64,000 bases of DNA from Stylophora pistillata (Eukaryota), in the NCBI RefSeq assembly GCF_002571385.2, contig NW_019218160.1:243581-307580 (forward strand), written 5' to 3'. Position 1 is the first letter of the stretch. Each line of letters opens with the position of its first letter. Shown here piece after piece: positions 10,587-36,021 of the stretch. The notes below the pieces were generated by a model. The model was not told where the DNA came from and searched no databases. It worked only from the letters and a program-made list of their open reading frames with translations. The translations under genes and the position numbers were made by a program.

Positions 10587-13500
10587 ATGGCCTCAAGGCT
10601 TCGCGGTTTGATTAAGTTTCCCTGGCGAGCAAAGAAAACGAAAGAGTCGGAGGAAGTTCTTTATGAAGAGGTAGGTAATCTTCTGTTCACATTGAGCACA
10701 TTTTGCCTCTTTGTCACGTGTTTAAATTAATTTGTTCTGTAAAATGGAATGAGTTATCAGCTCTCTTGGTATATTTGATGATTACCTATATATTTAAGAG
10801 CTTAATTCCCATTTAAAATTTTAACGTTGATTTTAATTACACTATATAAATTTTCCCACCCAGAATTTCAATATTTTGATATGCCTTTCTCGTTTCTGGG
10901 TCCTCCCTCTCCTCCTTGTCTCCTAAACACAAAATATGAAGTTAATCACCACTTAAAATAACAGTGCCGTAATTATACTTAGCGAATTTCAGACTGTAAG
11001 CTTGTGATTGTTATCAACTGAGAATCATATCTGGACAAAATATACTTTACATCTATCTGCAGAGAATTAAGCACACACGGTGTACCACTATTTAGAACTT
11101 CAATTTATTCGTCTGCAATAAAATAGTTTGAAAAGATTCATATGACAAATAACTGAAATTTGTGTTGAATATGGAAAAGGTAAGCATAGCTTTCAGTTCG
11201 AAGCGAAGGTCAACAAGGAAAACTTACATACCTGTATATCTCGCTGGAAGTCTTTGTTTAGCAGGGTTTGGCAAGCCGTCCTCGCGGGTTATTTTTGCCG
11301 GCTAACTTTCTTTAATACTTAACTTTCCGGTAGCTTGTGGAGGTTTACATATTTTTCTTTTTGAATTTTGGTATGTATTTTGACATTCAACCACACAACA
11401 GTTCACCTCATCTCAATTATTAGGAGTATAAGAAACTGATTTTAGAGAGGTCAAACAGGTCAACAAGGACAAACAATTTTCCTTGGATATTTGAGAGTCA
11501 ATTTTCAGCGTTTCGCTGGAGGCTCCAAAAACTTACGCACTCGTTCAAATAGCATAGATCGGACATGTGGTATCATTTTACATCTCTTCTGTTGATTAAT
11601 AGCAAAATATATAAATTCTGACCAAATAATTAAGAATTACGCTGTTTTGAAAATACCACACAAACAGCACTTTCCAAATTTGAGTGAGTGTGCTGTTCAA
11701 TTCCAAAACGCTTTTCTCAAAAGTGTAACGGGATCTGGAGTCCTCACCACTATCCATGTTTAGTACTAGGGCTGGTGTCCCGAAAACAACAAAAAAAGTT
11801 TTGGTAATTAGTCTTTTCGAGCTACGGGAGCTCGATGAACTTTACTAATTTTCTACGGTCAAAGTGCATATGACTTAATCTATGCAGATTTGTGTTACTC
11901 CATTTCTTGCTCAAAATCAATGTTTGAGGCAGTGGCTACTTTCAAAACTAGCATGGTTGTTTTTTTTTTTAAGTTGCGGATGTTCATAAATTCATCCAAA
12001 CTTTCCCCAAATCTAGCAATTACAAAAGTACAAATGAACATCTGTGTGACATTACGTTTAACTGTCTCATGGGGGCTAGAACATGTTGACAAAATGCCAT
12101 TAAGTTAGTTTTGACCGCTGTCATATGGTATGAAAAAACTAAAATTGCTGTCACCTAAAGACGTAGAAACGCTCATTCCAAATATGGCATTATGAAGAGA
12201 ACTTTATGTCTTACCAGAGCTTGAGAACATCTCCCCGAGAATGATCGAGAATCAGTCATGTGTCATGCTCTTTACTTTGAAAATGTCACGGATTCACATT
12301 TAACTACATCGCACGCAGTTACTTTAAAGTTGCCGAAAGAAATGGTTAATGTCAGGAGAGATACTTATTCTTTTTATTTCAGTTTACTCTAAAATTTGCC
12401 TTATCATGAAACAGAAAATGCAGTTTTATGGAAAACATATTAGCAACGCCGATTTCAGACAGAAATCTCGTCGGAATGTCCTTGTTTTTAGGTGATACAG
12501 TTAAATACAGTACAAGTATCATTCATTTCTATTGCCGCCTTATCATTTAGGGTAGCTCGATTAGCCGGGGCACCCTTCCTCCATGTAAACAGGCCCTTAG
12601 AGGTACAACTGCCTGCGTTTGCTCAATGAACGAAACTGAAAAACACTTGAAGTACAAAAGATAGACGGATTTAGTCAGAATATCACAACTTCAAGATTGA
12701 GGGGGAAGGAATGCAAATGTGGAGAGCTTATGGCATCAGGCAGGGAAGGCTGATTCCTTACCAAGATTAAGTCGTCAGGCCTCGTCAGTAAATGAAAAAT
12801 TATTTCCGCTCAAGGAGGTTCGGCTCCATAAGACGACACAAAGTAGTGTACCCCCTTTGGACAAGCACGTGTTCAAAGGGATTAACTGCACAACACACCT
12901 TCTAGTACTAGGCACGAGCAGTTTCGTGTTTCATTTCGCGTGAGTTTTCACTTTCAGCGTTCACCAGAGATTGTGTACTGTTTCGTTTTTCTTTTCAATG
13001 GGTCGTCAAAGTAGGTGTTCAGGTTGCAAAGAGTTAAAGTCTGCTCATGACTTCGGTCGTCCTGGAAAGTACTGTACCGGTCCAGGGGCCTGTTTCTCGA
13101 AGGTCCCGGTAACTTAACGGACCCGNNNNNNNNNNNNNNNNNNNNNNNNNNNNNNNNNNNNNNNNNNNNNNNNNNNNNNNNNNNNNNNNNNNNNNNNNNN
13201 NNNNNNNNNNNNNNNNNNNNNNNNNNNNNNNNNNNNNNNNNNNNNNNNNNNNNNNNNNNNNNNNNNNNNNNNNNNNNNNNNNNNNNNNNNNNNNNNNNNN
13301 NNNNNNNNNNNNNNNNNNNNNNNNNNNNNNNNNNNNNNNNNNNNNNNNNNNNNNNNNNNNNNNNNNNNNNNNNNNNNNNNNNNNNNNNNNNNNNNNNNNN
13401 NNNNNNNNNNNNNNNNNNNNNNNNNNNNNNNNNNNNNNNNNNNNNNNNNNNNNNNNNNNNNNNNNNNNNNNNNNNNNNNNNNNNNNNNNNNNNNNNNNNN

Positions 13501-16500: not shown

Positions 16501-19500
16501 CACACTCACTCAAATTTGGAAAGTGCTGTTTGTGTGGTATTTTCTAAACAGCGTAATTCTTAATTCTTTGGTCAGAATTTATATATTTTGCTATTAATCA
16601 ACAGAAGAGATGTAAAATGATACCACATGTCCGATTTATGTTATTTGAACGAGTGCGTAAGTTTTTGGAGCCTCCAGCGAAACGTTGGAAAATTGACTCT
16701 CAAATAAACAGTTTTCCTCACATCTTGTCGCCAAAAACTTGATAAAATAGCTTTACGAACCAAATAAATACAATTTTTGCTGATAGAATAAATCAAATAT
16801 CTCACAGTAAAAATTAGAGGGAATTCTGTGATCGGCCGAAATTCGAGTGGTCGGTTCTTACACGGACAGCCTCTTAATTTACAATATAAATTTAACCCAC
16901 CTAGAATTTCAATATTTTGATGTCTTTCTCATTACTGGGTTCCCCCTCTCCTCCTTGTCTCGTAAACACGAAATCTGAAGTTAAATCACCGCTTAAAAAA
17001 ACAGTGCCGTCATCATGCTTTGCGAATTTTTAGAATGTAAGCTTGTGATTGATATTAGCTGGGAAGTGTATCAGCGCAAAATATACTTTAAGCCTTTCTG
17101 CACTTTAAAATAAAAACCCCTAGGTGTATGCAGGGTACATGCTGCTTCGTCTGTGTGATTGTTTCAGTGGCCACTAAATATGTCTTAATTTGGATTCGAG
17201 GCACCTGAGCGAGTCGGCTAGAGTCTCGAATTGGAAATGATAAATTTTTTTCAGAAGACAGTGCTAAAGTTTTCAGAGGCCAACGGACTTTTATTTCTGC
17301 CTTTTCAGCTGTTTAAAGCAGAACAAGATGCTGCACCAGAAAAAAATGCTTCAACAGAAAGCAACGCTGCCCCAGGAAAGCATGCTGCTGAGGTAAGTTA
17401 GTGGTTTTCTTACCTAACTTAGAGTAGCAACCAAAAGAAGGTGTTCTGGCTGAAGAGTAACATGTCTGTACATATCTTGCCAGAGTTAATCTGACGGTGT
17501 TAAGATGTCCAAGCACTGGATGCATTTCAATAGTCATCATCAATAGTTATTTCTGCCTTTTCAGCTGTTTGCGACAAAAAAAAATGCTGGACCACAAAAA
17601 AATGCTGCACCAGAAAGTAACACTGCCCCAGGAAAAAATGCTGCTGAGGTAAGTAGGTGGTTATCTTACCTAACGTTGTGAAAAATAATGACCAATAGGA
17701 GGTGTTCTGGTTGAAGAGCAACATGTTGGTACATATTTACTTGGCACAGTAATTTGACGGTATTAGTGTGCCCAAGCATGGTATGCATTTCAATAGTGAC
17801 TTCATTTTCAGTTTTTAGTTGGTACCAGGAACACGATAAATGCCAGAAAAACGTCCACCTACTTAGATAAGTCAGCTCTTCAAACACAACCAATTTTTTT
17901 ATGCGACGGAATTTGGAGCTTGATAATCACAGAAATACGGTTTATTCCCCCTCCCAGAACACTTCAGAGAAGGCTATTTATTTCATCAATTTTGTACGTC
18001 ACTTGATGATAAAGATTTGTCCCTCTGCCCCACTTAAAGCAATTTTGAAGTAATTAGATCACATCGTTTGTGGTTTATACTTGCTGTGAGAGAACACTTT
18101 TAAATAGGTGCATACTTTTTATGCTGTATTCCTCTATTCAGAGAATAGTGTGGTCTCCTGGAACTAGAGTGATGGGAAAATATGCTTTCAAGGGGCGAGA
18201 CTCAGAGGTAAGCATTTTAATGATTTTATCAAAAATTGACTTGTGTTTGAGATAGTGGTGATGTTACATTGGTGACCAATTACTCACGCCGAAGGTTACA
18301 TAATTTTCTTTACGAGCCAGAAATTTCAAAAGTAATCAGTTATTTACACCCAGGAGAGCCTCTTTTTTTCTGTTTCATCATTTCATTAAGATTCTGAACT
18401 AGGAAAATATGGACAAGCCGAAAATTGAGCCCACCATTTTTAACTTGACTACTTGTCGTTTGTAAACGTAAAGGAACAAAGCTAATTTGCTAATTCTTCA
18501 AAGAAGCTTTCTCCAAGCATCTATTGATTGATGGTTCCTTTAGTTTATTGGAAGAAAACGTCAATAAAAGGGTTGGCTTACACAAGGGTACAATGTTATA
18601 ATCATTGACATCAGGTCAAACGGTCCAAATAATTGAAATGTTAATCTTTTATGTCTGTTCTATCTCAAGGATATGAGTTAACTATGAAAACAAATCACTG
18701 CTGGGTTAAAGGGCTGACAAATCTTCTTTGTCATTTAGGATCTGCCGTTTAAAAAGGGCGAAATTCTCATTATAGAAACAGTTACCAGGGTGAGTCCATA
18801 TGAAAACCTTGCAAAATTGTTCGGCATCGCTTATGGAACTGGGAAAAAGGTGTATTTTCGCGCTACCTCTTGTTTATGAGCATTACTTTCCGGTGAGACT
18901 CACCTTCCTCTGATTGAAAATTTGTCTGAAGTTTGGGTAGTAGCATGGCTGCCTACAAAATGACTCAATGAATTCGATAATGGGGTTTTGGTTTGTTTAT
19001 GTAGTCGCAGGTCATCAAGTTTAATGCTATGAGTGTAAAGGACCAGCGGATACTGGTGTTTCGGACTACAGACTGTCTAACAGGCGTATACACGAAATAG
19101 AATGTTCATGCCGTCCGGGACTGAAACCTAGACCTGCTGTACCGTTACTGGGCGCTTTATTAGCTGGGCCAAACAGTCGGCAGATTTATTTGCATGGTTT
19201 TTGTGGTCTCGAATATATTAATGTTCTTATAATCAATAACAAATTAATATATCGGAAAAGGTCTTAAAGATGTGAGGTAATTTCAATTTGGGAATCTTTG
19301 ATGAATATTGTTACGAGCGTGTCCACGAGAAAATCGGGAAGGGGGCGATAAACCACCTGCATTTTTTGCATAATTAATTAGTCAACTTTGCATTGCTGCT
19401 GTGACAAACTGAAAATCCATCTGCAAATTCAATCAACTGGGTTGTATTCTTTATTTATCAGACTTCAAGAAAACTGAATTGTTTTAACTTTTTCATTTCA

Positions 19501-22500
19501 TTTCTTCCCTTACCTCTCGCTTAAGAAAAGACGACTTTTTTCTAGTTTTGACAAAGTCGAAAAAATAAGGATATTTTAAAGCCCGATATCTCCGATGACC
19601 TACCACTTCTGATCATTATTCCTATATGGGCAGTGAAAGCCATCACTGGACTTCCAAAACACCCTTATTTGTTAACTCATGATACTTAGTATCTGTGCCA
19701 AATCGGTGATTTGAGGTTTAACGCTCCTGTCCGGTTCTGCCCGTTTTTCTCGGGGACACACTCTCAATTTTGTCTCATCTCTGTTTTCTGTAGGGTCACA
19801 ACTGGTATGGAGCAGTTAATAGTGAGGGACGAAAAGGATTCATTCCTGTCAACTTTGTTGAGAAATGTTTTACGTTCCGCGCTGTTGAACTCGAACCCGT
19901 GTTGTAAGTTAATTTTCTGAAAGCCTTCAGAAGAGTTAGATCTCAACGTTTGCAACTTGCCAAGTTTCCTATAATGCTGCAGAGTTTCAAAATTGTTTCT
20001 ATAATTGTTCACCTTGATAGTTTAGTATTGCAGTGAACAGGAGATTAGCAGGTAGACATGTATTAGGAAAATGCAACTGTGTTACTGTGTGGTACAAGCC
20101 ACAACAGCAGGTGATGGATCGACTGTATTTAATGTGCATCTCGGATCGTAATTTTAATGGTTCATAACGAATTGAGTGTATTTTCGTCTTACCTATACAA
20201 ATGAAACCGTGGAGGCGCGGTGGCCTCATGGTTGGTGCGCTCGACTCCGGATCGAGTGGCTCGGGTTCGAGCCCCGGCCGGGGACATTGCGTTGTGTTCT
20301 TAGGCAAGACACTTTACTTTAGGCAAGACACTTTACTCTCACAATGCCTCTCTTCACCCAGGTGTTTAAATGGGTACCGGAAAATTTAATGCTGGGGGGT
20401 AACCCTGCGATGGACTAGCATCCCATCCAGGGGGGAGTAGAAATACTCCTAGTCGCTTCATGCTACAGAAACCGGAGTTAAGCACCGGCCTGATGGGCTA
20501 CTGGCTCGTAAATAGACTTTACCCATACAAATGAAACAGTTTAGCAACGCATTTTTCATGAAAACAAACCTTCTAGATCATAAAGACTGAGAAGCGTCAG
20601 AGAGGTTTGGAATTATTGCGCTAAATGCTCTATACGAAAAAAAAAGTAAAAGTTAAAGTTCGCAAACGGTTCGTGAACGATTCTTAAACAATTTAGCTGT
20701 ATCAAGTTTGGTCGATTAACTTGGCTGTTATTCGACGAAGCGAAAGGTATGAAAATAGAGTGGAAGCCCATATCTGCGTGATAGTTGATGAGTATTCACC
20801 GAAGTGTAGGTGGCACAAGGTTGGATATTGTATTGAGCCGTGAAGCGGCGAGGGAAATATCCATCGCCAGCCACCGACACTGTAAATAGTATATACCAAA
20901 AAAGTGAGAAAATATAGCACGGTTACAATTTATTTGGACTCAAATCCTGCGCAAGTTCCTGGGAGGTGAAAAGGAAAAAACATAAACCCCTCCAGGCGAC
21001 TGGTATGTCACCTCTACTGTCTGTGGCTGAGATATTGTCCGAAAAATGAATATTTGGTTGAGAAGCGAAGCTTCGAGTACAAATGTGATATTATTGAGGA
21101 CAATCCCTCAGCCAAAGACATCATCACCCGACAGGTTTATATATATTTTAATAACCTGCACATTAATTTTCACGCCGGGTAAAGGCAGCTCGGAAAAAAA
21201 GCTATTGTTGATCTTTTTTTGGGTGTTTTCTGGAGCAGCATTAGCAACCAGCGTTTAAATGTCACTATCACTGGACTCTAAAAAACGAAATTGTTTTTCC
21301 TCCATGTAAAATATTACGGATGACGGGTAAAATTCTTCATCTGGCTTTTTTTCTGCAAACTTTGTTTCATTTCGGAAACAGAAAAAATCTCGACGCAAAC
21401 GGGAGTCGTTGCGTGATACATGTCTGGGATTTTGACATGAAGTAGCCAATAAGATCGCGCAAGAATTCGTGGGTGGGTTTTAAGAAAGGATATTCGGAGT
21501 TTGAGTAGCCAACCAGAGCACACTTTCAAAGCTATCCACAGTTTAATTGTAAACTAATGAAATTACCCGTTGCTTCCGTACTCACGGACGTTTCATACTC
21601 GGTCGATTCCTCTTCAGCAACGATCGTTGGTACACAGTCGATTGAATCGTTTCGTACCCATGCAAAAGCAATTAAGTCGAAGCCAGTTTTCTCGCCAGTA
21701 AAAAGAATAGAACTTGTTTTTTATCCAGAAGCTAACCAATTCGCACAGGCTTCAATCGCGAACTTTCAATTTGTGTTTGAAGTGGGCACGGTGAAGGGGC
21801 TACGCGTATTGTAGAGGCCGGAAGTGATAACAAGGAAGACGGTGATGCCAACGAAGACGATGCGAAATAAACAGATGAAACTGTATCTATTTTATCACCT
21901 ACCGGATTGCGATCTTTTTTTTTTTCACTTAATTGTTTCTGATAAGTTTCATGATCTTTTCAAACCTTCACGCGTGGTTACAGCTTGATTATCAATTCTT
22001 AACTGGAAGCTATTGTTTGTTTTTGTTTTGATCAAAATCACAGATCGTTTCATGGGGATATAAGCAGAAGAGAGGCTGAGATGCTTCTTAACCCTCGCGA
22101 AGACGGATTGTTTCTGATAAGAAACAGTGGCCACTATAAGGGGGACTATGCGATTTCGGTCTGGTATGTTTGTAGTTTGTCGTAATTATAAAGTGAACTT
22201 TTTGTATCTTCGAGAAATATTAAAGAGACGAACGCTTCGCTTATCGCAAGGTGTCACTGGGGAACTCTTTGATTAAAGATTCTTGGAAACTTGGTCCTAA
22301 TAACTCCTTGGTAGCACGTAGTCAATACTTAGCTCCTTAAAGTGATTCTTCCGAAGAAAAAGATGTCGTACAATTTTTTTATACTTACCTTAATGTTCCT
22401 ACCAATGTCTGTTTCGAAAACTACAATAAAAGAGATAGGCCACCTTGGTTGCTTAAGAGATATAATAGGCTGGTCTTACCCTATATATGCTTGTGCTGCA

Positions 22501-25500
22501 GTGGCTAATTCTCTCCTCATTAATTTGCTTCTACTAATGATACCTTAATATGTGTATTCTGTTGCTTCAAATCATCATTTTATCATTTCGACATTTTAGC
22601 TCATTAGTGCGCTTGTCGTGCATTCTTCTTCACAGCTGTGGTCACAAAGTTGAGCATTACAGAGTCAGAGTGAGTGACGGTGAAGAACTTACAGTAGACG
22701 ATGAATTTTCTTTTGGAAGTCTCCCCAAATTAGTAGAGGTAAGTAATGTGTATATCAGGTTCGATAGTAATCAGTCCTCCAGTAAACTGTATAGTTTTAA
22801 GTTTCGTGCAAATAATAAATACCATGCACAACTACTATGACAATGCAAAATTCTTTTAGTTAACTTTTATTTTACTGATTAGAGCCTCGAATATTGCTTT
22901 GAGGTTTTCCCCCATTGCGAGTTCGCCATCAACTACCGAGTTCGCCGCCTTTGGTAGAACAAATTCACCCCACTTTTGTGAGTTCGCACTCAATGGAATT
23001 TTTATGCTTGTTTCTTTATAGCGGAAAGTATTCCTTTGTGTATTTTTCAAGTCAATGTACCTCACATAGCAGAGCAGAACATTGAGAACAGAGTAGACTA
23101 TGCTCTGCGCAAAGCAAAGCATTTCAAGCGTAGAAGAACATGGCACATATTGATCGATTTAACTTGTCCAGCTACTGAGACGTGGATCCTTCTTATCTAT
23201 AAAAACACGCTCACGTACAACAAAGAATACTTTTCAAATTCTAAACGAAATATAATCTGCTAAAGTGGTTTAATAGACGTATCTCGAACAAACCACACGA
23301 GAGAATGGCGCCCCATGAAAATAATGCAAATGAAAAAGTCCAAAGTATGCCAATATTGAGGATCGAAATGAACCAGCGAACTGAAGAAGACGGCGCAAGA
23401 ATAAACGCAGACCAACTTGTTACTCATAACCTTATGCTACATCCTACAGTATGTTAATTTGACCAGTTAGCCACTACTCCTTTACATCACGGTCTGGCTT
23501 TTCTTAGCGTTATTCAAAGGACCCAGATGGACTATGTACGAGATTAGCAAAACCTGCCACGTATAAAGGAGAAACATTTTATACCAGCATCGATCGGTGG
23601 TGTTTTGATAACGGTAAGCAGGCATGCAAGTAAATGCGAAAATTTTTCCTTTAGGGGAAGATTTGCCTATAGTTTTTCCGAAAAAAAAAAGGATTTCAGT
23701 AATATGGGTAGTCTATACTTTATTGACCTTGTACAAAGTGAACTGGCTGAAGAAGTTTTGTTATGATTTCTCTCAGTTACTCGAGCCACCCTCAAACTTT
23801 TGACTTACTTACATTGTAATAGTCTTTTATAAGAAGGAAAGGCTAAGTTATAACACCCCTGACAATATTCATCTTTCGTTGTTGAAACAGCAGTGTATAA
23901 ATATTTCCGTTTTTCATTACGCAAGAAGTTGCTGTGGTTGTCAAGATAGAATTTAAAGAGATCCGATCAATCAGAAAAGAGGAAAAATTTTATGCAGATA
24001 ACTCGAACCTTCGAGAGAGTTCAAGGTGTAAGGCTAAGTTTTGGGGCGGTTGTACCGCTGAGTATTTTTACGAGCTATACCGTATTTTAGTAATTTGGTT
24101 CATCAGTTGAGTTGAAATTGTAACTGGGACGTTTTCTTGAGTAGTAGTGAGTAGGCAAATTGAGAACCTAGGACGCGATTTAAAATGTCGTTGGTTCACC
24201 GATGAGTACAAACGTACAAAATTTGTTTTCTTCTAGGTGGATGGGAAATAAACCGCACATGCCTTTATTCAAGGAACTGCATAAGAAGGGGAGACTTTGG
24301 GGGCAAGTATAAAGAATAAAAAGTTGCCGTTATTGAGAACTAAAAAAGGTTTCGTCTTAAATTTTCACTGTCTCTTGTAGCATGTGATCATTATTTCACT
24401 TAATGCTCCTTGAGTGCATCGCAAGGAACGCATAAAATAATAGTCTCACTCTTGATTTGCTGAAGTGTGCATTACGTTTCTTAAGATTTAAGCCTAGAAG
24501 GCCTAGAAGATCCCTCCCTTACATAGGACAATAGGAAATGTGTAGATGTATGGATAGACCGACAGAAAAACCTATAAGTAAGAATATAAATGAATCGATA
24601 CTTAAGAAGGTCGTGGTTTTTTTTCAATGAATGAACTTGCGATCGTAAATGAAGAAAAACAATTAGCAGATTGACCTATATACAACTAAGAAGATTCTAG
24701 GGCTTAGGTAATCACCAAATGTCATACCCTAAACCTAAACGGTCGTAAACGGACTTACCCCTATACCCATGATACTACAACACAGTCCCCATGCCTTGTT
24801 ACATTTCCTCGTGCCCACGAAATCTTTATTTTACCCTTTATTGCAAGCTCATTCGCGAAAAATGGTCTTTGTCAAATAGAGATTGTATTTTAGCAGTAGT
24901 GAGGAGAAAATTTGAGCAGTTAGCTGTAGGTGGAAATGTAATTTATCTTAATATGGAAAATGGGATTGATCAGTTGTTCATTAACCCCTCAGATATTTTT
25001 CAAGCCGAATACCTTAGTCACAAAGTGACTGTGAAAAAATATTCAGCAAAGAGCTATCAAGATGTTCAAGCGTTTTTACTTGAGGCTGCCATCATGACGT
25101 ATGTAAATCTTGACATTGTAGAGTTTTATAGTGATGAGGCTTTTTGGTTCTTTTGAAAATTTACCCAATTTTATTTCAAGCAGGTTGATCTCTCACCTGG
25201 CTTATTCTGAGAACTCTTTTTCATCATCCATCCATTCCTGAAGGTAAATGACTAACTACCGTGAGAAAGTGCTTTGAACTTTGGCTTTGGCTTTTTAAAC
25301 GGCGGCGATAGGGTTGCATTTGAGACCTTACCATAGTATGCAAGGTCTGATGAAAAATTAGAAGGAACAGTTACTTTTTGACAAGTTTCTTGATAAGTTA
25401 AAGTACCAAATAACTAGGTGTTTGTCAATCTACCTATTAACAGTTTTTATTTAGAAATAGAAAGAATATGAAAAACTGCATTGGGCAGACATGCAGGCAG

Positions 25501-28500
25501 TTGTTTTTATCGTGTCTTTTTTTTTTAACAGGAAACTACAGCATAGGAATATTGTGACATTATTAGGAGTGTCATCGACCGAAGACCCTTTCTACCTTGT
25601 GACAGAGTTTTGTGCAAAGGTAAGCGTTTCAGGGCCATGGAAAAACTTGCGTTTGATCAAACAGTTGCAGGTCAGTTGAGTTGCACCTTCAGCTACATAT
25701 CCACAACACCCAACAATCAAAAAGCCTCGGGAATTTAACGTCTTCTAAGTGTGCACCAAATTGTAAAGTTGTGCTGATGTAAGATGTAGTGATCCCTATT
25801 TCCTCGAGGCAGTTCAAAACTTTAAAATTATTTCGAGACTTAAAGAAAAAAAGCGTCAATGCATGACGATAGATGTTCATGAAAGATTAATGAGCAGGTT
25901 TTAGTTGCAGTTGAGAAGTTTGCTAGTATTAGGATAGGTGATAGGATGAAATGTATAATTGACCAATCAAATGTCCGATTGTGCCAGAAGCGATACGGAG
26001 TCAGTATCGAGGTCTGTTTCATCTGATTTTATTACTCATCAAGAGTTTTAGAGTAGTGTTGCGTTTCAAATGATTGTAACTATTTCCCATATTTTCTCTT
26101 TTTTTACATATAGGGAAATTTATTGGAATTCTTGTCGGGAAGAGGCTCAAGTACAATCCAGGAAGATGATCTTGTGAACGTTGCTCAGTAAGGAATTTNT
26201 CTTCTGGGAAAGTGATTCTTGTCAAATAAAGAATGCAGAGCAAGAGACTAGCCTTTATTCTGAACCATCAAACGGCCAAAAAATTACACGTGAAAGTGGC
26301 CCAAAGGAAGATACTATAGGAATGATTTCTTAGTTACCATAATTAATTCATATAAATGTTCTGTTCCACAGGGATGTAGCTCGCGGTATGGAGTATTTAC
26401 AATCCAAAAATGTAGTACACAGGTAAAATGTCTCGCCACAAATTTTTGGAAGGCATGAAAAGATGAGCCGTGATAAGGAATTGTGGGAAACTTGGATTCT
26501 TAGTTGAAAGGGAACCAAGAAACACAGTTGAATAGTACACGCGTTTTGATTGGTTCTTACTTGTGATCTATTGGAAAACAGACGTATGGGTGACATCACC
26601 ACTTACCGATTTTCCTGGGTGTGATATGAAACAAAAAGATTCTATATTGCCGTGCGTCTGTTCAGTAAATATATCAAAGAAAACGTCTAATGTCGTAAGA
26701 ATATCAGACATAATCAGCTGCGCCTAGTGTTCCATTTTTCTGCTCTTGCCAAATGTTGACCTCATCTGTGTTCTATGACCGAACAGTCGCACCGCAACTT
26801 GGAATCTATTGACTATAGTATGGAAAATCAAACCAACCGAGTGTTACAGAGAATGACTGAAGATAAGTGTCTAGAAATTTCTAAGTAAGAATATTACACG
26901 TCACTTAATAGTGTTACGGTATTTTCTCAACCGACAGAAAGTTACAACTCGTACCAACTCAACTTCTTTATTAACTGACGTAATAACTACCGAGCGATAC
27001 CAATAACTAGTACGATAACTATTCTCTTATGTTAGAGCCCTCTATAAAACTATAATGTCAGTGAACTACTGCACAACCCACAGTTCGCTTCAATCATCCT
27101 TATAACTTAACGATGTCCACAAAACTCTTCTCAATATAGCCTTCCACACGGCTGACAATTCCAGTAACAACACTAGCTCCTTTGGGCTCTTCACGACAGC
27201 ACTTACTCACTGAAAAAGGACTAACTTTAAGCGATCGCTACTCCTTATATATGTTTACAAAATGTTCTAGAACATTCTAGGAATCTGTAATACGACTATT
27301 TTTAGTATCATTACATCACTATTGCATCCTAACAAAATATGCTGACTAAGGGTTCTAGAAAGTTTCATTAAGAGTTCTTGATGAGTCAGCATGACTAACC
27401 GTTCCAGAAACTTCTTCAGTTCTATTTGTAGTAATTATGTAACACAACGCTCTCCATACCAGTAGAGCAGTCGAATTTGTAGGATTGTAGTGTTTTTTTT
27501 ATTGGTTGAATTAAACCGTAACACGAGTACATTTTGGGACTTACGGGTATGAGCAATGTTTTGAAAACGAATCAAAACATTACAAGTGGCCATTTAACAC
27601 CAAATATTCGAGAAGTTCATGCGATTTTCTTTTTGGTTTATTACACCCTCAACAAAACTCTCCCAACGAAAATTGTTCTTTCTTTGAATTGATCATTAAA
27701 AAAACTTGAGTTGAAATAGTGATACGCAAACGATGTCCTCGAAAAGGGAAAGTGCTCAGAAACGTTAAGGATCGTCTCACCAGTAATGATCACCTGGTAT
27801 GTTTTTATCACCTGGTATGTAAAAAAGCGCACTATAAATCAATAAATTATTAAATTATTATTATTAGTAGTAATGTAATCTACAGCATTACTGATAAAAA
27901 TTCTGAGCTATAGAGTAATTGTTTTTTGCTCAGAGTCAAATTGAGTGGGATATGTCATCAATACTTGCAGCTTTGCGTATCCTAACTATGTCCTCTTCTC
28001 ATATTTACATCTTCTCACTCCAGGGCGTTAATGGCGAGGAACATTTTGATAGATGAAGATGGAACAGCAAAGGTAGGTCAACCAAGGGTCATAACATTAT
28101 CACATAATGAAAACGCGATTATCTCGGGAGTAGTTGTTTTCACCTTTTATTCAGGTCTCCTTTATTTGGCAGGATTGTGAATTGCAATTGTCAGTCATCA
28201 TTCAGCTAGCGTGGAGCTGTTCTGCGATATAAAATAAAGAAATAGCTTGACTTCCACAGCTGTCATCTATTCTGTGATAAGATTGAAAGAGTACAACGTT
28301 ACTCAGATTCCACTAGTTTCATTTAAACGTCAAATTACGAAAGTTGGCTTCTGCTTAGTGAGGCTTTGAGAGCTTTGATTTATGTGCTTAAATGCCGTTG
28401 GTGTTTAGTCGCCTTTCCTTCACTGTTAGGTGTCTGAGTTTGGACTTGCACAGATGTACAATTCAAGTTCTGAGCGGAAAAATACTTCTGACAAGTGGGC

Positions 28501-31500
28501 AGCTCCAGAAGCAATCAGAGAGGGGGTACAGCGTACTTAGAGCTTTTAAGCATAATTAAAAGCACACACGTAGTAAAATGTGCAGATACATAATGTATCA
28601 AAGATACATAATTTCTAAATCAATCTTTAGTGTTGTTGTTGGTTTCGGTTTTTTCTTCTTTTTTATCTTTTTAATTGTTTGTTTGTTTGTTTGTTTTGGT
28701 TTATTCATATTTTGTGATGGAGGTCTTTTTGACGGTGAATAAGACTTTTTATTCTATGAGTCACGGGTGTTATCAAACAGTTTGTCATTTTACAGTTCAA
28801 TGAGCCAGTAACGTTCAAATTTGAAGTTTAAATCAACCAGTCACATTCAAAGTTGTGGTTTAAATCAACCAATCACAACCTTGGTTTCTTTTATTGAAAA
28901 TTTTCTCTTTGTTTCATCATTTGGCTTTGTTTCTTTACTTTGAAATTGAAATTTTTATGATCTATTGGTAATAAGACTTCGTGTCGTCCAGTTGGGTTTT
29001 TTAATTATACTCGTGGTCAACAAATCGAACTCCCGCTGGGCGGTCGTTCGATTTTGTTATTACTGGTATAGACCGAATTAAACTCCACTCGGTCCTATTA
29101 CCATTATAAAAGGTGTATACCATAACTGGAATCCAGGCGTCAGCGAATGATTTGTCCAGATTTATCGATTTTGTTTATGTCTGCAGATATTTTCCCCCCA
29201 GTCCGATGTGTGGAGTTATGGTGTTTTATTATGGGTGCTTTTTTCGTTTGGTGAAAATCCATATTCTGAGCTGGTTAGTGTTAAGGTGGATTAATGGTTA
29301 CGATCCGATTCAAAGGTCCTTTTGCTTTCTCGTAAGCTGGTAACCTTAAAACATATGATTTAGAATCACGTACTTTGTTTTCTTGTGTTTTCTAACTGAT
29401 GTTAAAAAACCCAAATTTGACATTACAGGAAAGAAAAGCTAACTCATGCGTGTAAGTCAAAGCTCATGGTCTAGACAGTACTAAGAAATAAACAAATTAA
29501 AGTTTTGTTGTGGTGTTTTTATTATGGAATTTAAAATAAGGATGCAACTAGTTGACAGTGGTTGCTTTTAGGTTATTTGCGCGGCTCTTCAAATTTAATT
29601 AATTAGGTTTTGGTTTTAGCCTGCAGACCAACTAGTCGACAAGATCGAAAAAGGGTACCGAATGAAATGTCCTAAAGCATGTAATACCGTCATCTATGGT
29701 ATGATGAGCAACTGGTGGAATATTGATCCAAGGGAACGTCCAAGTTTCAAAGAGATTTATAAATTATTGGCCAACTATTTTTACGGTATGTAATGTCATG
29801 TAACTAAACTGTGCCATCAATTTTTTTCCAAAAACTGAAATCTTTTTTACAATGTGAAAAATTTCTGAACAAGCTTCTAAGGTCAATATTTTTATGCACT
29901 TTTGTTTAGCAACTTGTCGGTGATAAGTCAATTTTCTAAGATTTATTTTACGTATTCATCACTTCATCATGACTTTCTTCGGATGTTGTATGAAGGTTAA
30001 TGTTTTGTACCCCAATTGCCGCTTCGTGGTTCATTAGTTCATTGTAACTATATCGCCAGTGCATTTGATCAATTAATTTTTTCATGTTAAGAATTTAGGG
30101 GTATTTGCCATTGTTTTGCCGTATAAAGATAAGGTAACGTTGTAACTTGAATTAGGTAGGGCTTACCCTAACCCACTTTAACCTACTTTAAAATGTGGAT
30201 TAATTCAAAGTTATTTATGCAAATAGATGAGGTGCCTAAAGAAATTCGTGCACGAGGACGTTTGGCTTTAAAGGCCTACAAAAAGGCTCTGTCAGAAGGG
30301 AAGACATGTGTCAAACGCGTGCCAATCATGTTAATTGGGCAGGACCGCTCCGGAAAAACCAGCCTTGCGAAATCTCTCAAAGGAGAGCGATTCAACTTGG
30401 AGGAAGNGACACTCCAGAGCTTAACAAAATGGTGGTCCTTGACGCTCAGTGGTTGATTGATGTTTTCAAGGAAGTTATAACTATTAGGCCATTTGACAGC
30501 AATGAGAAAAAATTTGAAGAGCTTTGGCTAAGGCTTGAAAACGAAGGAATCTTGGAGGAACCTCTTCTAGAACATGTTTGGGGTTCTCTATATCACAAAG
30601 AGGACACTTGCCAGGGTCTCATTGCGATCATGGAGAAGTTCAGTTTGCTTTGCTCTTGGCCCTTTTTGGATGACTCATGTAGTAAGCAGTACCTAGTGCC
30701 TTCCATGTTAATGTCGCACCCACCAGAAGAAATAATGGAGCTGGTTGTATCTGCAGAAATTCCCCCTCTCTTTATCAAATTTGAATCTGGACAAGTTCCA
30801 CCTGGCTTGTTTCCTCGATTGGTGCTGCAGTTTTTACAGTGGTGCAAACAAGAATGTACAAGCCCAGATCACCCTCAGCTTTACCACAATTTTGTCAGAA
30901 TTTACGATTCCAAAGAGGAAAATTGTTCCGTAATCCTCCTGTGCCATATGTCGTCAATAGAGGTTGTTGCTCACAGAGGTGATGACGGTCATGAGGTAGC
31001 ACACTGTTCAAAGTCAGAGATAACTTCGCCTGTGGAGAACCACCACGACGCCTTTGCTTGTGCAGTATTGAGGCAACTGAAATTGGTGCTTGAGTCCATG
31101 CGAAGGGAATTCTGTTGGCTACAGAATATGAAATATGAAATAAGTTTCTTGTGCCCTGTTTGTTGTCGAAGAGGTGCAGTCAGCTACTGCCGAACACATC
31201 GGAGAAAAAATTGCAAGCAAGAAGAATGCTTCCACTTCTGGCCCGAGTCAAAGCTGTTCAGCGACAAGAAGATGATCTGTTGCACCAGATCTGAAACTGC
31301 TAAGATGAACAGAGTTTCGTTGAAAAACTTCGAGCCTTGGTTTTCTCCTATGAGAAATCAGGTAAATGATTTTAGATAACACAATACTTTCTTTGGAGGT
31401 GAATTTCATTTTGATGAGATGTACAGAAAATGTGTTACGTGTTTGTCCTCAAAAGATAAGACGAGACCGTAAATGTTTAACTACTTGACTGAAACCGTCA

Positions 31501-34483
31501 GAGGACAGGTCCATAAAGACAAATAAGGCACCTATATTTTGGTTCGGTTGTAAAAGTTAAGTGCTTCGGAATATTACTTGTTTTCCCATGCAAAATGAAC
31601 AAAGTTATCCTTTTGTCACACATGCCTAAGGCAAGTATTGTAATTAAGGAAATGCATCAAACGTACAATGGTTAAAAAACGTTGCATTCCCATGATGGTG
31701 CTTAATTCTTTTTCCTTTTTTTAACAGTTTGCTGTCGATAAATGTGGTGACGGAAACTTAGCCTCTGTTGAAGGTAACATTACTGTATATGTTGTTTGAT
31801 GGTTCTCTCTAGAAAACGGAATAGGCAAAAAGTCCTTCATTTGACTGTTAAAAAATACATTTCATTTGACAAACCTTCAGACTGAAGCAAATATTGCCCA
31901 AAACTTTTCATCTTGTCTTTATTTTAAGATGGTGAGGAAAATTTTTCTGCCAATGAGTTTTTGCGAATCCGTTTAACACAGCGGCGAGACGACCAAAATA
32001 TTTCACCACAATTAAAGGAGAGTCTGCAGCTGGAAGAAGCCTTTCCAGAGACGCTGGAGTCTGATTCCAAACGTGGTGATATGGTGCAAAACCTGGATAA
32101 AACTACAAGTGAGTGCATCTTAAGCTTGCTTGTCCTTTCTGTTTTATTAGAAAAAAAAATAACAATGATCACTGCTATAAGAATATCAACATTTTAACCT
32201 AACATCATGAAGAAAAACAAGGGAAGGTTGAAGGCCATAGTTAGATTGCAAAACTGCCAATGTTCTGAAAATATCCGTGGCAGTTCTCCAAAGACATTAC
32301 GCAGTGAATAAATTATTTGAATTATCATTGATTGATGACTCATCTTTTCCTTTTGTTTAACCTAAGCAACCACCGAAGTTTCCCTACCTGATAATGTTAA
32401 GCAATCCCTCTTGTCAGCGTCGTGCAATGCCAACGAGATTGTTCAACAACTGAAGGAGAACCTGCAACTGGACAAAGACGCTCTTGAGCAGCCAGACCCT
32501 GACACCAAGATAATAATCCGTAATCTGGCACAGAAAGCAAAATATCTAAGGAGACTTGATGTCTTTGAACATTTAAGAGAGATTGTACCTGCTGGAACTA
32601 CTGGTTAGTTGTTTGTTCTTGCGAAATCTATCTTGCCGTACCCTTACGTATCCCATAGTTACCTGGAACATGAAACTATGGGATACGTGAGGGTACTGCA
32701 GAAATCAAATCAAAATTATAAAGAAAACATAAATCTTTATAAATTTTTACTTTGACAACCAACTGCAAAGCTGGTATTTGACCTGAAAAACTACATTTTC
32801 TGATGACTCTTTCTTTATGCGTTGGCAGACTCACTAACCGCGTCTAGAAAATAGAATGACCAGTGGTATGTTCAAGGTGTTCGGTTCGCGNTTGTAATTC
32901 CAGTCTGGAAGGCTCTAAGTGGGGGATGGTTGGCCATTTGTATGGTTATTCCAATCAACTCAGTGATTGGTGGATTCATTTGAGTATATTCATTTAATCG
33001 ATCACATTGTCTAATTACAACCCTACAGATTTGTAAATGAAATGGAGTTCTTCACCCAATCACGTTGGAAGAAATTGTAAACTTAAGGTTATAATCTTTA
33101 ATTTAAAAGAGACGATGCAGATCTCTATTTCGAATATTGCTATTGGCGTGTCATATAGTTTTCGATATAGCATGACTATGTGATAATTTCTGGTAGAGGA
33201 TTGTTATATGCATTGAAGTAAGATGACATAGTGGAGATGTAGTAATACTGTACTGTTTTGAGAGTTGCTGATTCATATAGACTATATGTAAAGTTAATGA
33301 AATGAAATTCCTCAAATGGTACGTCTATGAAAGAACCTAGAAGTTTCAAAGAGAAATATACATCCATAAAAAGTCATGCCGTCGATGAGATTTAGTTTCT
33401 TATCTTATAGTATTTTTACACTGCTAGTATCAGATGACTTTGATTTTATCTTGCAAATGTAAATTCATATTTCGTTTAACAGAGGTACTCCCGTAACAAT
33501 TGACATAAGTACAAAATTCGAAGAGTAATGTTGTCTGAGGCGATACATGAAGCTTTTAACCTACTTTGAATTAATATTTGCGTTTCAATAGTTGCACTCA
33601 CCTTTCAAAATTATGATTTCGTAAACGCTTGCTATAGATCACAGCGGTTTACGTTTGAAAGCAAAGTAAGGCTTGGTTAATCTTCTAGAGAAAGAAGCAA
33701 TTCATTTCTCGCCTCTTTGAAGAACATTAGTTTCCTATAGGTTTGCTGTAGTTTGCTACAAATAAACGTTTTGGAGTGTTTATTATTTGTGGTGTTAACT
33801 TGTTTTGTTATGATCGCCATTACTTCCTATGCAAATAATCCCTACAAACTATATCTGAACGCTAGAGCCAGTCTTATTTCAATGGTTCCCAATATAGCAC
33901 GCAAAGTCAATCAAAGTCAGAATCGTCCTGGAAACACCGACATCTTAGAAACTACTTTAATAGTTTTAACAATTTGACTTAAAAGTCAAATAAATGTATG
34001 GATTCATCAGGGCAATAGGCTTATTAGAGAAATCATACACTCTAATTTTCAGTGTAACAGGAACTTTTGAGTGAGTGTGGTATGCATTCAGCTTAACTCA
34101 TTTTCAGTAAAATGAGAAGAATGTGGCAGCGAAATGGCCTGTAACTTACGCAAGCGTAAAGGCTTACCACTGTGGTTATTTCAATTAAGGTCCCATTCTG
34201 AGTTTGAAATGTCAGTTCTGAAATCCACCTCCAAGTTAACCCAACTATTTTTATTATCAAAATAGTTAAAAAACAAACCTTTGATTTAGGTGGCGATGAA
34301 TGGATGGAGCTTGCAGAAGGACTGGGACTGACTCCTCAAGAGATTCGTTTTCTTGACAAGCGTACACTGAACCCAATGGACGCGGCTCTGTCTTTTATTG
34401 CAAAGCAGCGCCACTTAAGCGTGGGCGAGCTGTACGAATTGTTTATTGCACATGACTTTCCTATGTTAGCTGACCTATTGTAA
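10587..34483 (+). CDS. Multi-exon chimeric gene: SH3-SH2-CSK-type tyrosine pseudokinase fused to ROC-COR-helical linker-death domain (ROCO)
   Basis: Hand-spliced, phase-compatible exons: 10587-10670, 17309-17392, 17565-17648, 18142-18207, 18739-18789, 19794-19903, 22044-22163, 22636-22738, 23508-23613, 24237-24302 (GC donor), 24993-25098, 25532-25619, 26114-26187, 26372-26422, 28024-28072, 28430-28525, 29187-29273, 29620-29785, 30227-31361 (N at 30407), 31728-31773, 31929-32108, 32367-32603, 34290-34483. No stop codons within these exons. The first three exons and the terminal exon assignment are the least certain. Confidence 0.8.
12998..13084 (+). mobile_element. Possible tyrosine-recombinase retrotransposon (DIRS/Ngaro) gag N-terminal fragment
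   Basis: [29 protein letters not shown] (CxxC..H..C knuckle), interrupted by a GGGGCCTGTTTCTCG MITE end and an N gap. Family assignment from memory only. Confidence 0.3.
15820..16090. mobile_element. Non-autonomous Penelope-related fold-back repeat with hammerhead-like cores
   Basis: Arms 15820-15908 and 15944-16032 are inverted. Core gct CCGACGA agggctaaccctc GAAA cg TC agc at 15939-15972. 13-bp TSD TAACTTA(A/C)TGGAA at 15807 and 16091. Confidence 0.7.
17290..17800 (+). repeat. Tandem duplication of an 84-nt exon with its flanking intron (~256-bp unit)
   Basis: TATTTCTGCCTTTTCAG|CTGTTT...GCTGCTGAG|GTAAGT repeated at 17309 and 17565, with similar downstream intron sequence. Confidence 0.88.
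18142..23613 (+). CDS. CSK-type SH3 and SH2 domain exons of the chimeric gene
   Basis: [19 protein letters not shown]|[17 protein letters not shown]|[22 protein letters not shown] (SH3); [40 protein letters not shown]|[10 protein letters not shown]...[17 protein letters not shown]|[16 protein letters not shown] (SH2). Closely follows recalled CSK sequence (WPSGTECIAKYNF, DLPFCKGD, GLFLVRES, KVEHYRI, DADGLCTRLIKP). Confidence 0.9.
20208..20524 (+). mobile_element. tRNA-derived SINE, full length
   Basis: tRNA-like head with A box (TGGCCTCATGG) and B box (GGTTCGAGCC); conserved central domain (GGCAAGACACTTTACTCTCAC..CCCAGGTG..AAATGGGTACC); internal 19-bp tandem duplication; 13-bp TSD ATACAAATGAAAC at 20195 and 20525. 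Confidence 0.88.
24237..29785 (+). CDS. CSK-like tyrosine kinase domain exons, predicted pseudokinase
   Basis: GWEINR..IRRGDFG|[27 protein letters not shown]|[21 protein letters not shown]|GNLLEFL..|[17 protein letters not shown]|[16 protein letters not shown]|[18 protein letters not shown]|[18 protein letters not shown]|..GYRMKCP..RPSFKEI. Most intron positions match those recalled for CSK. Confidence 0.9.
26912..27443 (-). mobile_element. Possible solo LTR
   Basis: TGTTAC...GTAACA ends; minus-strand TATATAAGG (~27245) followed by AATAAA (~26970); no TSD found. Confidence 0.4.
28964..29107. repeat. Short palindromic MITE-like repeat
   Basis: TGGTAATAAGAC...GTCCTATTACCA termini with an internal hairpin (AACAAATCGAAC..GTTCGATTTTGTT). 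Confidence 0.55.
30227..31361 (+). CDS. ROC (P-loop GQDRSGKTS) and COR exon; most of ROC lost at the single-N gap at 30407
   Basis: ORFs 30193-30456 and 30306-31379 are the two sides of the N. Both align with the intact paralog at 51864-54124 (VPKEI..RG..A..KA; IGQ.RSGKTS; TPEL..VVLD.QWLI.VF; LVPSMLMS; FESG.VP.GLF; F.CP.CC; CKQEEC.HF). Confidence 0.9.
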
Positions 34484-36021
34484 CTGAAGAAGATTGTTGC
34501 GAGCAAATATTTGTCTGACCTCGGCTTATTTTTTACCTTTGGTAACAGCCAATCTGAACCTAAAAAGGACACTACATGCCTGGATATTTAGGCTTTTACC
34601 TTTTTGCTTTGTTAACGATAAAGAGTGGGGCGCAAAAACCTTTCACCCTGTGTAATTAGGTCCTGTTACCAATTAATCATAACCATTGCAATTTCCGAGA
34701 TAAACAGAGGGGATTAATCGAAATAGGGGTTTGTAATTCCAGTCTGGAAGGCTCTAAGTGGGGGATGGTTGGCTATTTGTATGGTTATTCCAATCAACTC
34801 AGTGATTGGTGGATTCATTTGAGTATATTCATTTAATCGATCACGTTGTCTAATTACAACCCTACAGATTTGTAAATGAAATGAGTTCTTCATCCAATTA
34901 CGTTCAAAGAGATTGTAAACTTAAGGTTATAATTTTGATTTAAAAGAGACTACGCAGATCTCTATTTCGAATATTGCTTTAGGCGTGTCCTATAGTTTTC
35001 GATATAGCATGAGTATGTGCTAATTTCTGGTAGAGGATTGTTATATGCATTCAAGTAAGATGACAGTAGAGATGTAGTAATACTGTACTGTTTTGAGAAT
35101 TGCTGATTCATATAGACTATATGTAAAGTTAATGAAATGAAATTCCTCAAATGGTATGTCTATGAAAGAACCTAGAAGTTTCAAAGAGAAATATACACCC
35201 ATAAAAAGTCATGCTGTCGATGAGATTTAGTTTCTTATCTTGTATGGTATTTTTACACAGCTAGTATCAGATGACTTTGATTTTATCTTGCAAATGTAAA
35301 TTCATATTTCGTATAACAGAGGTACTCACGTAACAATTGACATAAGCACGAAATCCGAAGAGTAATGTTGTTATCTGAGGCGATAAATGAAGCTATTAAG
35401 TAACCTACTTTGAATTAAGATTTGCGTTTCAATTGTTGCACTCAGCTTTCAAAATGATGATTTCGCAAACGCTTGCAATAGATCACAGCGGTTTACGTTT
35501 GAAAGCAAAGTGAGGCTTGGTTAATCTTGTACAGAAAAAAGCAATTAATTTCTCGCCTCTTCGAGGAACGCTTAATTTCTTATAGGTTTGCTGTAGTTTG
35601 CTACAAATAAACGTTTTGGAGTGTTTATTATTTGTGGCGTTAACTTGTTTTGGTATGATCGCCATTGCTACCTATGCAAATTATCCCTACAAACTATATC
35701 TGAACGCTAGAGCCAGTCTTATTTCAATGGTTCCCTACATAACAGGCAAAGTCAGTCAAAGTCAGAATCGTCCTGGAAACACTGAAATCTTGGAAACTAT
35801 TTTAATAGTTTTAACCATTTGACTTAAAAGTCAAATAAATGTTTGGATTCCGTTAAGGCAAGAGGCTTATGAGAGAAATCATACACTCTAATTTTCAGTG
35901 TAACAGCAACTTTTGGAGTGAGTGTGGTATGCATGAAGCTCAACACATTTTCAGTAAAATAAGAAGAATGCAGCAGCGAAATGGCCTGTAACTTACGCAT
36001 GCGTAAAGCCTTACCACTGTG
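32892..36021 (+). repeat. ~1.3-kb local direct duplication (32892-34173 and ~34730-36021)
   Basis: Near-identical text in both blocks, including the paired ORFs at 33753 and 35598. The first block starts exactly at the N at 32891. Confidence 0.92.

Follow-up and report, generated by a model that had tools for sequence, protein, structure and literature searches.

A CSK-derived module, predicted to be catalytically dead, joined to a Roc-COR-Death gene in the coral Stylophora pistillata

Gene architecture and expression

The stretch analyzed here, 64,000 nucleotides (nt) of the Stylophora pistillata genome (RefSeq assembly GCF_002571385.2, contig NW_019218160.1, forward-strand positions 243,581 to 307,580; hereafter the window, with positions counted from its first letter), carries an expressed gene with the architecture SH3-SH2-pseudokinase-Roc-COR-Death, spliced in frame, in which the Death domain is likely (Table 1). 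The kinase is encoded by nine exons, 24237-29785, whose joined sequence contains no stop and stays in frame into the Roc exon. A preliminary description of the locus had also counted nine stop-free exons, with 28525 as its end coordinate; the exon encoding SDVWSYG lies beyond that point, at 29187-29273. Conceptual joining of the exons from SH3 up to the gap at 30407 gives 506 codons with no stops. A phase-1 donor closes the ninth kinase exon at the point where true CSK continues to its stop, and the FLVRES arginine of SH2 is kept (FLIRNS).

The tandem Roc-COR arrangement that defines Roco proteins lies in one polypeptide, as indicated by the kinase-to-Roc RNA joint, the P-loop in the window, and Pfam Roc and COR-A matches on the near-identical protein P0003 and on Pocillopora P0254. 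The N at 30407 conceals ~1240 nt of Roc, and a contig from RNA run X8 places 1240 letters across the gap. Of the GTP-binding motifs, G1 is in the window, whereas G3 (WDFGG) and G4 (THAD), both covered by the gap here, were read from P0003, which is 93% identical over COR. The COR exon is 100% identical to an NCBI Stylophora pistillata protein.

Reads were drawn from 8 of 24 listed runs, all RNA (X8, X12, X18, X20, X21, X22, X23, and X24), and each kinase intron was seen as a joint in at least one of them. The 26422/28024 joint, across which the HRA motif is read, was present in six runs (8 reads in X21, 1 in X24, 2 in X22, 7 in X23, and contigs in X8 and X20); X12 and X18 have no entry for it. 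The kinase-to-Roc joint, 29785>30227, was present in five (7 reads each in X22 and X23, and contigs in X8, X18, and X20), with no entry for X12, X21, or X24. The intron with its donor at 24303 is GC-AG, as opposed to GT-AG in true CSK, and is spliced in RNA (3 reads in X21, 5 in X24, and a contig in X8). The joint from the SH2-kinase linker to the kinase (23613>24237) was also present; splicing of the SH3 and SH2 exons was assigned from splice signals, phase, and NCBI models, because the RNA rows shown start at 23613. In X18, a deep intron-retaining contig covers 26423-28023, accompanied by a joint from ~27796 to 28024, and may reflect an aberrant allele; this intron contains a repeat at ~26900-27460. 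Codon 29713-29715 is Trp in the assembly and the canonical Cys in all seven RNA runs that cover it, consistent with a private allele or an assembly error.

Databases mis-annotate the gene as "CSK" or "MATK-like", or split it in two. GenBank model PFX19103.1 labels the locus "Tyrosine-protein kinase CSK", connects it to COR, omits three kinase exons and Roc, and takes in upstream exons of another gene. The window also holds, at 2970-4783 (+), orphan 3' exons that belong to another Roc-COR-Death gene and are nearly identical to those of a second copy on contig C1155. They carry an in-frame stop near 3605, and GenBank model P0248 connects them with the front of the CSK module.

Table 1. Exons of the SH3-SH2-pseudokinase-Roc-COR-Death gene in the window
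Feature	Positions	Strand	Evidence
Likely first coding exon, starting MASRL	10587..10670	+	97% match to N terminus of NCBI model P0436 (second copy); splice not among RNA rows shown
Two 84-nt repeat exons, low-complexity linker	17309-17392, 17565-17648	+	In models P0248 and P0436; related exons head upstream Roco gene P0282
SH3, three exons	18142-18207, 18739-18789, 19794-19903	+	AG/GT ends and phase; Pfam SH3_1 E 2.8e-8 on P0248; match to CSK exons on C43
SH2 and SH2-kinase linker, three exons	22044-22163, 22636-22738, 23508-23613	+	Pfam SH2 E 4.6e-16 on P0248
Kinase exon 1, Gly loop IRRGDFG, GC donor at 24303	24237..24302	+	RNA, alignment
Kinase exon 2, VTVK and alphaC Glu	24993-25098	+	RNA joints, alignment
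Kinase exon 3	25532-25619	+	RNA joints, alignment
Kinase exon 4, changed Src-docking segment FLSGRGS	26114-26187	+	RNA joints, alignment
Kinase exons 5-6, HRALMARN	26372-26422, 28024-28072	+	Joint in 6/8 RNA runs
Kinase exon 7, EFG and APE	28430..28525	+	Joints in X22, X23, and X20; skipped in X18 contig
Kinase exons 8-9	29187-29273, 29620-29785	+	RNA, alignment to CSK
Roc-COR exon, P-loop GQDRSGKTS	30227..31361	+	RNA joint 29785>30227; Pfam Roc, COR-A
C-terminal exons, Death-like domain at end	31729..34484 (last exon ~34290-34484; inner limits approximate)	+	NCBI models P0002 and P0248

Catalytic state and ancestry of the kinase domain

Our re-reading of the sequence bore out the motif changes listed in the preliminary description, together with the motifs said to be kept. 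The HRD motif has become HRA: a His codon is followed by AG (26421-26422) and, across the intron, G (28024), encoding Arg, and then by GCG (28025-28027), encoding Ala, so that the segment reads VVHRALMARN. DFG has become EFG (GAG TTT GGA, 28436-28444), and the Gly loop at 24281-24301 reads IRRGDFG. VTVK, FLLEA, APE, and SDVWSYG are all kept, with the beta3 Lys, the alphaC Glu, two loop glycines, and the Arg and Asn of the catalytic loop. A pseudokinase is a kinase that has lost at least one of the VAIK Lys, the HRD Asp, and the DFG Asp; without the HRD and DFG aspartates, phosphotransfer is abolished or crippled. Two of the three residues are gone here and the Lys is kept; the module is a pseudokinase by motif, as previously proposed, and is predicted to be dead.

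CSK-family kinases carry the HRD Asp (Asp314 in human Csk) and the DFG Asp, at which this module has HRA and EFG. In alignment to coral CSK, the first and third Src-docking arginines are replaced by Ser and the second is kept (YLRTRGR to FLSGRGS); by their motif, we take the three to stand at human Arg279, Arg281, and Arg283. Passages of PMC10016382 give Arg279/281/283 as the Src-docking residues of human Csk and Asp314 as its catalytic base.

Among the RNA variant rows listed, none fell at the HRA or EFG codons, and a search of the window for an alternative exon encoding DLAARN or DFG found none. A-to-I editing was rejected as a rescue, as neither Asp codon is restorable, judged from the codons themselves. 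The ESM Atlas returned generic kinase clusters only, and a single-sequence AlphaFold model of Pocillopora damicornis P0291 (mean pLDDT 40) was discarded as uninformative on the fold.

The donor is CSK, as the SH3-SH2-kinase order and the ancestry of the module both indicate. An intact CSK lies on another contig of this genome (G000:C43), with GKGEFG, HRDLAARN, and DFG. The two share 243 of 441 residues (55%) and 10 of 15 exon lengths, and the kinase groups with this CSK in the tree (support 97/95). A search with the last kinase exon alone, a weak test, gave two candidates and no matches; a metagenome scan gave five loci. P0381 (Logan) is a transcript fragment that groups with pocilloporid CSK copies and has its kinase part missing.

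Age, constraint, and specificity of the losses

The preserved reading frame had been offered as support for retention of the module. The frame is indeed open, but on its own this says little, since Roc-COR-Death further downstream depends on the same frame. We therefore tested for amino acid constraint after the loss of catalysis. The pairwise maximum-likelihood (ML) dN/dS against true CSK that had been suggested as a check came to 0.18 overall and 0.21 for the kinase, although this value averages in the slow true-CSK branch and the dS (~2) is near saturation. Among sites defined from 10 reference CSK-like kinases, 44 of 57 CSK-invariant kinase sites are kept, compared with 91 of 191 variable sites (p=7e-5).

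The inactive motifs recur in an ortholog outside Stylophora, another check that had been proposed and one that does not depend on the RNA variant rows. Pocillopora damicornis P0291 (XP_027051167.1) carries HRGLMARN and EFG, and its accession adjoins that of a Roc-COR model on an equally long contig; Pocillopora verrucosa P0254 (XP_066024910.1) has the same kinase-to-Roc junction. The dead state, being shared with Pocillopora, is therefore older than the Stylophora/Pocillopora split. Across 179 aligned sites, the two genera differ at 6 of 70 CSK-conserved sites and at 30 of 109 others (p=0.002), and a neutral null preserving only the frame predicts 13.9 conserved-site changes where 6 were observed (P=0.0014, 5000 runs). 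These comparisons of sequences support an old module with its kinase fold kept under selection, as had been suspected, rather than a young pseudogene; the near-identity to a parent, neutral decay, and species-specific lesions that mark young pseudogenes were not seen.

A very young pseudogene or an assembly error has next to no probability. There are assembly gaps in the region, and the Trp codon at 29713-29715 reads Cys in RNA, but the module is only 55% identical to true CSK at a dS of ~2 and is spliced in RNA, and the EFG and the loss of the HRD Asp common to Pocillopora refute it.

The claim that catalytic motifs had been specifically inactivated stood in part. Both aspartates are lost, but they are among 13 of the 57 CSK-invariant sites that have changed; others are the first Gly of the loop, the Ala of VAVK, the P+1 Pro, and two of the Src-docking arginines. 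The enrichment of changes at functional sites falls short of significance (p=0.086). The joint loss of catalysis and substrate docking speaks against a simple Src-binding decoy.

A near copy of the gene, a paralog or a divergent allele, lies on C1155. Between the copies, introns differ at 171 of 3580 sites (4.8%) and the SH3-SH2-linker exons at 61 of 547. The counts show SH3-SH2 to be diversifying, with dN 0.143 against dS 0.054 (Fisher p=0.009) and an ML omega of 2.6 (p=0.016). For COR, dN is 0.041 and dS 0.085 (p=0.025 by counting).

The Roc-COR-Death family and module exchange

The genome holds at least 73 Roc starts (73 of 81 candidates), and architectures outside the window were taken from NCBI gene models reached from a COR search. 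Oculina P0242 (XP_078381375.1) is SH3x3-SH2-CSK-like kinase-Roc-COR-Death, with SH3 triplicated; its HRD is kept, DFG has become AFI, two loop glycines are lost, and the catalytic-loop Arg is changed. Oculina P0252 (XP_078380037.1) is WNK-OSR1_C-Roc-COR-Death, with HRD changed to HRN and DLG to GGL; WNK of the Stylophora genome is intact (HRDLK, DLG). Both kinds of captured kinase found, CSK and WNK, thus lack catalytic residues. A further chassis, KAL9956867.1, carries GT4 and a weak TRADD-N. Neither P0248 nor P0242 has a Pfam match to ankyrin, to NB-ARC/NACHT, or to LRR, and a PDB sequence search returned bacterial Roco, LRRK2, and LRRK1, with nothing close. The gene is neither a functional CSK nor DAPK1 nor an NLR.

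In the Roc-COR tree, the Oculina CSK chassis stands beside the Oculina GT4 chassis, and a single clade of CSK-bearing chassis is rejected (p-AU 3e-14); modules were therefore swapped or captured repeatedly. The pocilloporid and Oculina CSK fusions share 11 derived residues versus 3 and 4, an excess (binomial p=0.014) to which long-branch bias could contribute, and form one clade in only 48% of bootstraps. The approximately unbiased (AU) test rejects no arrangement (p=0.17, 0.24), and CSK may have been captured once or twice. Intact CSK and WNK donors and the chassis tree indicate that copies of host proteins have been exchanged among paralogs, as in integrated domains. A WNK-Roc fusion was not seen in this genome, where the WNK exon matches all fall on C111, with no Roc start listed there. 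A search with the Oculina kinase C-lobe brought up generic tyrosine kinases; the best 120 of its 493 matches include no further fusion to Roc.

The upstream neighbor, P0282 (XP_022800903.1; G000:C376:174396-214668, L031-L034), has an SH3 remnant and an IIGP/IFI44-like GTPase. Its first exons are the same 84-nt repeats as in the CSK-bearing gene, and the GTPase module stands in the place of SH2-kinase, likely because modules were swapped within the cluster. The window contains fragments of IIGP/IFI44-like GTPase genes that resemble its N-terminal module, at 519-848, 37593-39340, and 62343-62730 (-), and a second, divergent Roc-COR exon of 798 codons at 51843-54236 (-) (Pfam Roc and COR-A; long branch in the tree).

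We also surveyed the 10-20 kb before 16 other Roc starts, scanning 134 of 688 open frames. A same-strand, non-transposon domain over or near threshold lay upstream of 6 of the 16, a matter of location that does not imply splicing to Roc: KH (C140, C1140), HEPN (C276), IIGP-like (C523; weak by Pfam, a strong match to P0282), SH2 and ubiquitin (C184), and SH2 (C102). Two further Roc starts (L047 and L049) have a weak Gcd10p/TRM6 match upstream. The SH2 and ubiquitin-like exons stand just before the Roc genes at L052 and L053 (G000:C184) and L051 (G000:C102); the KH pairs are on L038 and L039 and the HEPN on L043.

Proposed role and alternative explanations

On our preferred reading, by analogy with integrated domains elsewhere, the predicted-dead CSK module is likely a bait or sensor that would control death-domain signaling on a Roco GTPase. 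We give this a probability of about 0.5, and regard it as a strong lead rather than a result. Keeping its shape, the module would be bound or modified by whatever targets or binds host CSK/Src-type signaling, be it a microbial effector or a host phosphotyrosine cue. Engagement would alter Roc-COR, in its bound nucleotide or in its oligomerization, after which the death domain could recruit a cell-death or inflammatory adaptor. An active CSK copy might interfere with the control of Src, which would explain why catalysis and Src docking were shed. The family is fast-evolving and probably immune, on the same analogy. A wider proposal, that stony corals possess a family of integrated-decoy receptors on a Roc-COR-Death chassis that repeatedly captured and disabled host enzymes (CSK, WNK) as baits, is more tentative, and we lean somewhat against it.

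Several observations weigh against the bait reading or the constraint beneath it. The immune role draws on analogy, and the Pfam Death match (E 0.005-0.007) is under the curated cut-off here and over it only in the relative P0119. Both Pocillopora models are partial, so that the fusion is seen there only in part. Besides the limits of the pairwise dN/dS given above, substitution severity between the genera is indistinguishable from the null (P=0.12). Functional sites are changed at 8 of 21 positions versus 12 of 63 other conserved sites (p=0.086), and the trend is likewise not significant in Pocillopora (p=0.091, not independent) or Oculina (p=0.071); apart from the docking residues, the functional-site list follows general kinase knowledge. 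The excess of dN over dS was measured on SH3-SH2 only, because the kinase of the second copy falls in an 8.9-kb gap (C1155:22076-30937), and the constraint on COR is not significant by ML (omega 0.62, p=0.16). Run X18 retains the intron after 26422 and skips the EFG exon in frame. Finally, of the 9 variants listed for the linker and kinase exons, 8 are non-synonymous, to which paralog reads may contribute; this preponderance shows no strong present-day purifying selection.

An intramolecular regulator or scaffold is an unlikely but serious alternative. The pseudokinase, possibly binding ATP through its Lys-Glu pair, would pack on and tune Roc-COR, and SH3 and SH2 would localize the protein to host phosphotyrosine, with no foreign ligand. 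Such a part would agree with the constraint on the fold, the retained beta3 Lys, alphaC Glu, two loop Gly, catalytic-loop Arg and Asn, and SH2 arginine, and the SH2 exons just before other Roc genes of this genome. However, a fixed host ligand does not predict a dN/dS of 2.6 for SH3-SH2 between close copies, nor would one expect unrelated N-terminal modules to be exchanged on one chassis.

It is improbable that the module is a passenger in a birth-and-death family, set before Roc by exon shuffling and selected only for its frame and as a folded, harmless spacer. The frame forced by downstream Roc-COR-Death, the non-significant functional-site enrichment, the mostly non-synonymous variants, the aberrant splicing in one run, and the decayed Roco copies nearby would all suit a passenger, and selection merely for staying folded could still yield the conserved-site signal. 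Against it stand the constraint beyond frame since the genus split, the nine kinase exons kept, the dN>dS in SH3-SH2, and dead CSK fusions in two coral families.

More doubtful still is a non-catalytic inhibitor of Src-family kinases or dominant-negative CSK, binding tightly like Chk/MATK and wired to the Roco switch. There is precedent in Chk, which passages of PMC10016382 describe as inhibiting Src kinases through binding alone, and basic residues persist at the docking site of the Oculina copy. But Ser replaces two of the three docking arginines in this gene, and Pocillopora retains none of them; nor would such a role account for WNK and the other modules on the same chassis.

If the wider proposal holds, the captured modules would list host proteins attacked by coral pathogens or symbionts. 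Integrated decoys are a plant-NLR paradigm, and an animal Roco version, if true, would show the same logic evolving on a different switch and would offer coral immunity testable targets in Src/CSK and WNK signaling. Should there be no immune role, the locus would still combine a pseudokinase with a layout convergent on that of DAPK, and would serve as a natural experiment on how kinases lose catalysis once fused.

Comparison with known systems

The closest relatives of the module are CSK and CHK (MATK), with which it shares SH3-SH2-kinase order, intron positions, and a place in the tree beside the CSK of this genome. It differs from them in the residues it has lost (the two catalytic Asp, the first Gly of the loop, and two docking Arg) and in its fusion to Roc-COR-Death.

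DAPK1 is a calmodulin-regulated Ser/Thr kinase with ankyrin repeats, Roc-COR, and a C-terminal death domain. Its N-terminal kinase (described in parts of PMC4104024), central Roc-COR, and C-terminal death domain (likely in the coral) resemble the coral order. The coral kinase is instead a dead CSK-type tyrosine kinase with SH3 and SH2, there is no Pfam ankyrin match, and there are dozens of paralogs with swapped N termini. The two layouts are convergent.

Plant NLRs with integrated domains (NLR-IDs), as outlined in sections of PMC9528084, join a copy of a host protein, often a kinase, to an NTPase switch as presumed effector bait. The coral gene likewise places a host-derived domain on an NTPase switch; its switch is a Roc-COR GTPase, not NB-ARC/NACHT, and it has no LRR. 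In the amoebozoan IMLRK Roco proteins (pats1, roco9), an excerpt of PMC2927912 describes an inactive N-terminal myotubularin and a C-terminal kinase mostly predicted to be active. An inactive enzyme domain at the N terminus is common to both, but IMLRK has the active-predicted C-terminal kinase and no death domain.

Marin 2008 reportedly treats Roco evolution and Hamada 2013 coral NLRs. Our literature search found no description of a coral CSK-Roco or of a kinase-Roc-COR-Death family, though the supplementary architecture tables of PMC8195603, outside that search, could list such proteins; the architecture is apparently undescribed.

Bacterial AP-GTPase/COR conflict systems and the brown-algal and Trichoplax Roco expansions carry variable fused domains, with a counter-invader or immune role proposed in portions of PMC8195603, PMC11378527, and PMC4104024. 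In the bacterial and algal proteins, LRRs form the N-terminal sensor, and in bacteria a variable effector is C-terminal. In the coral family, by contrast, the death domain is constant and whole host signaling modules vary at the N terminus.

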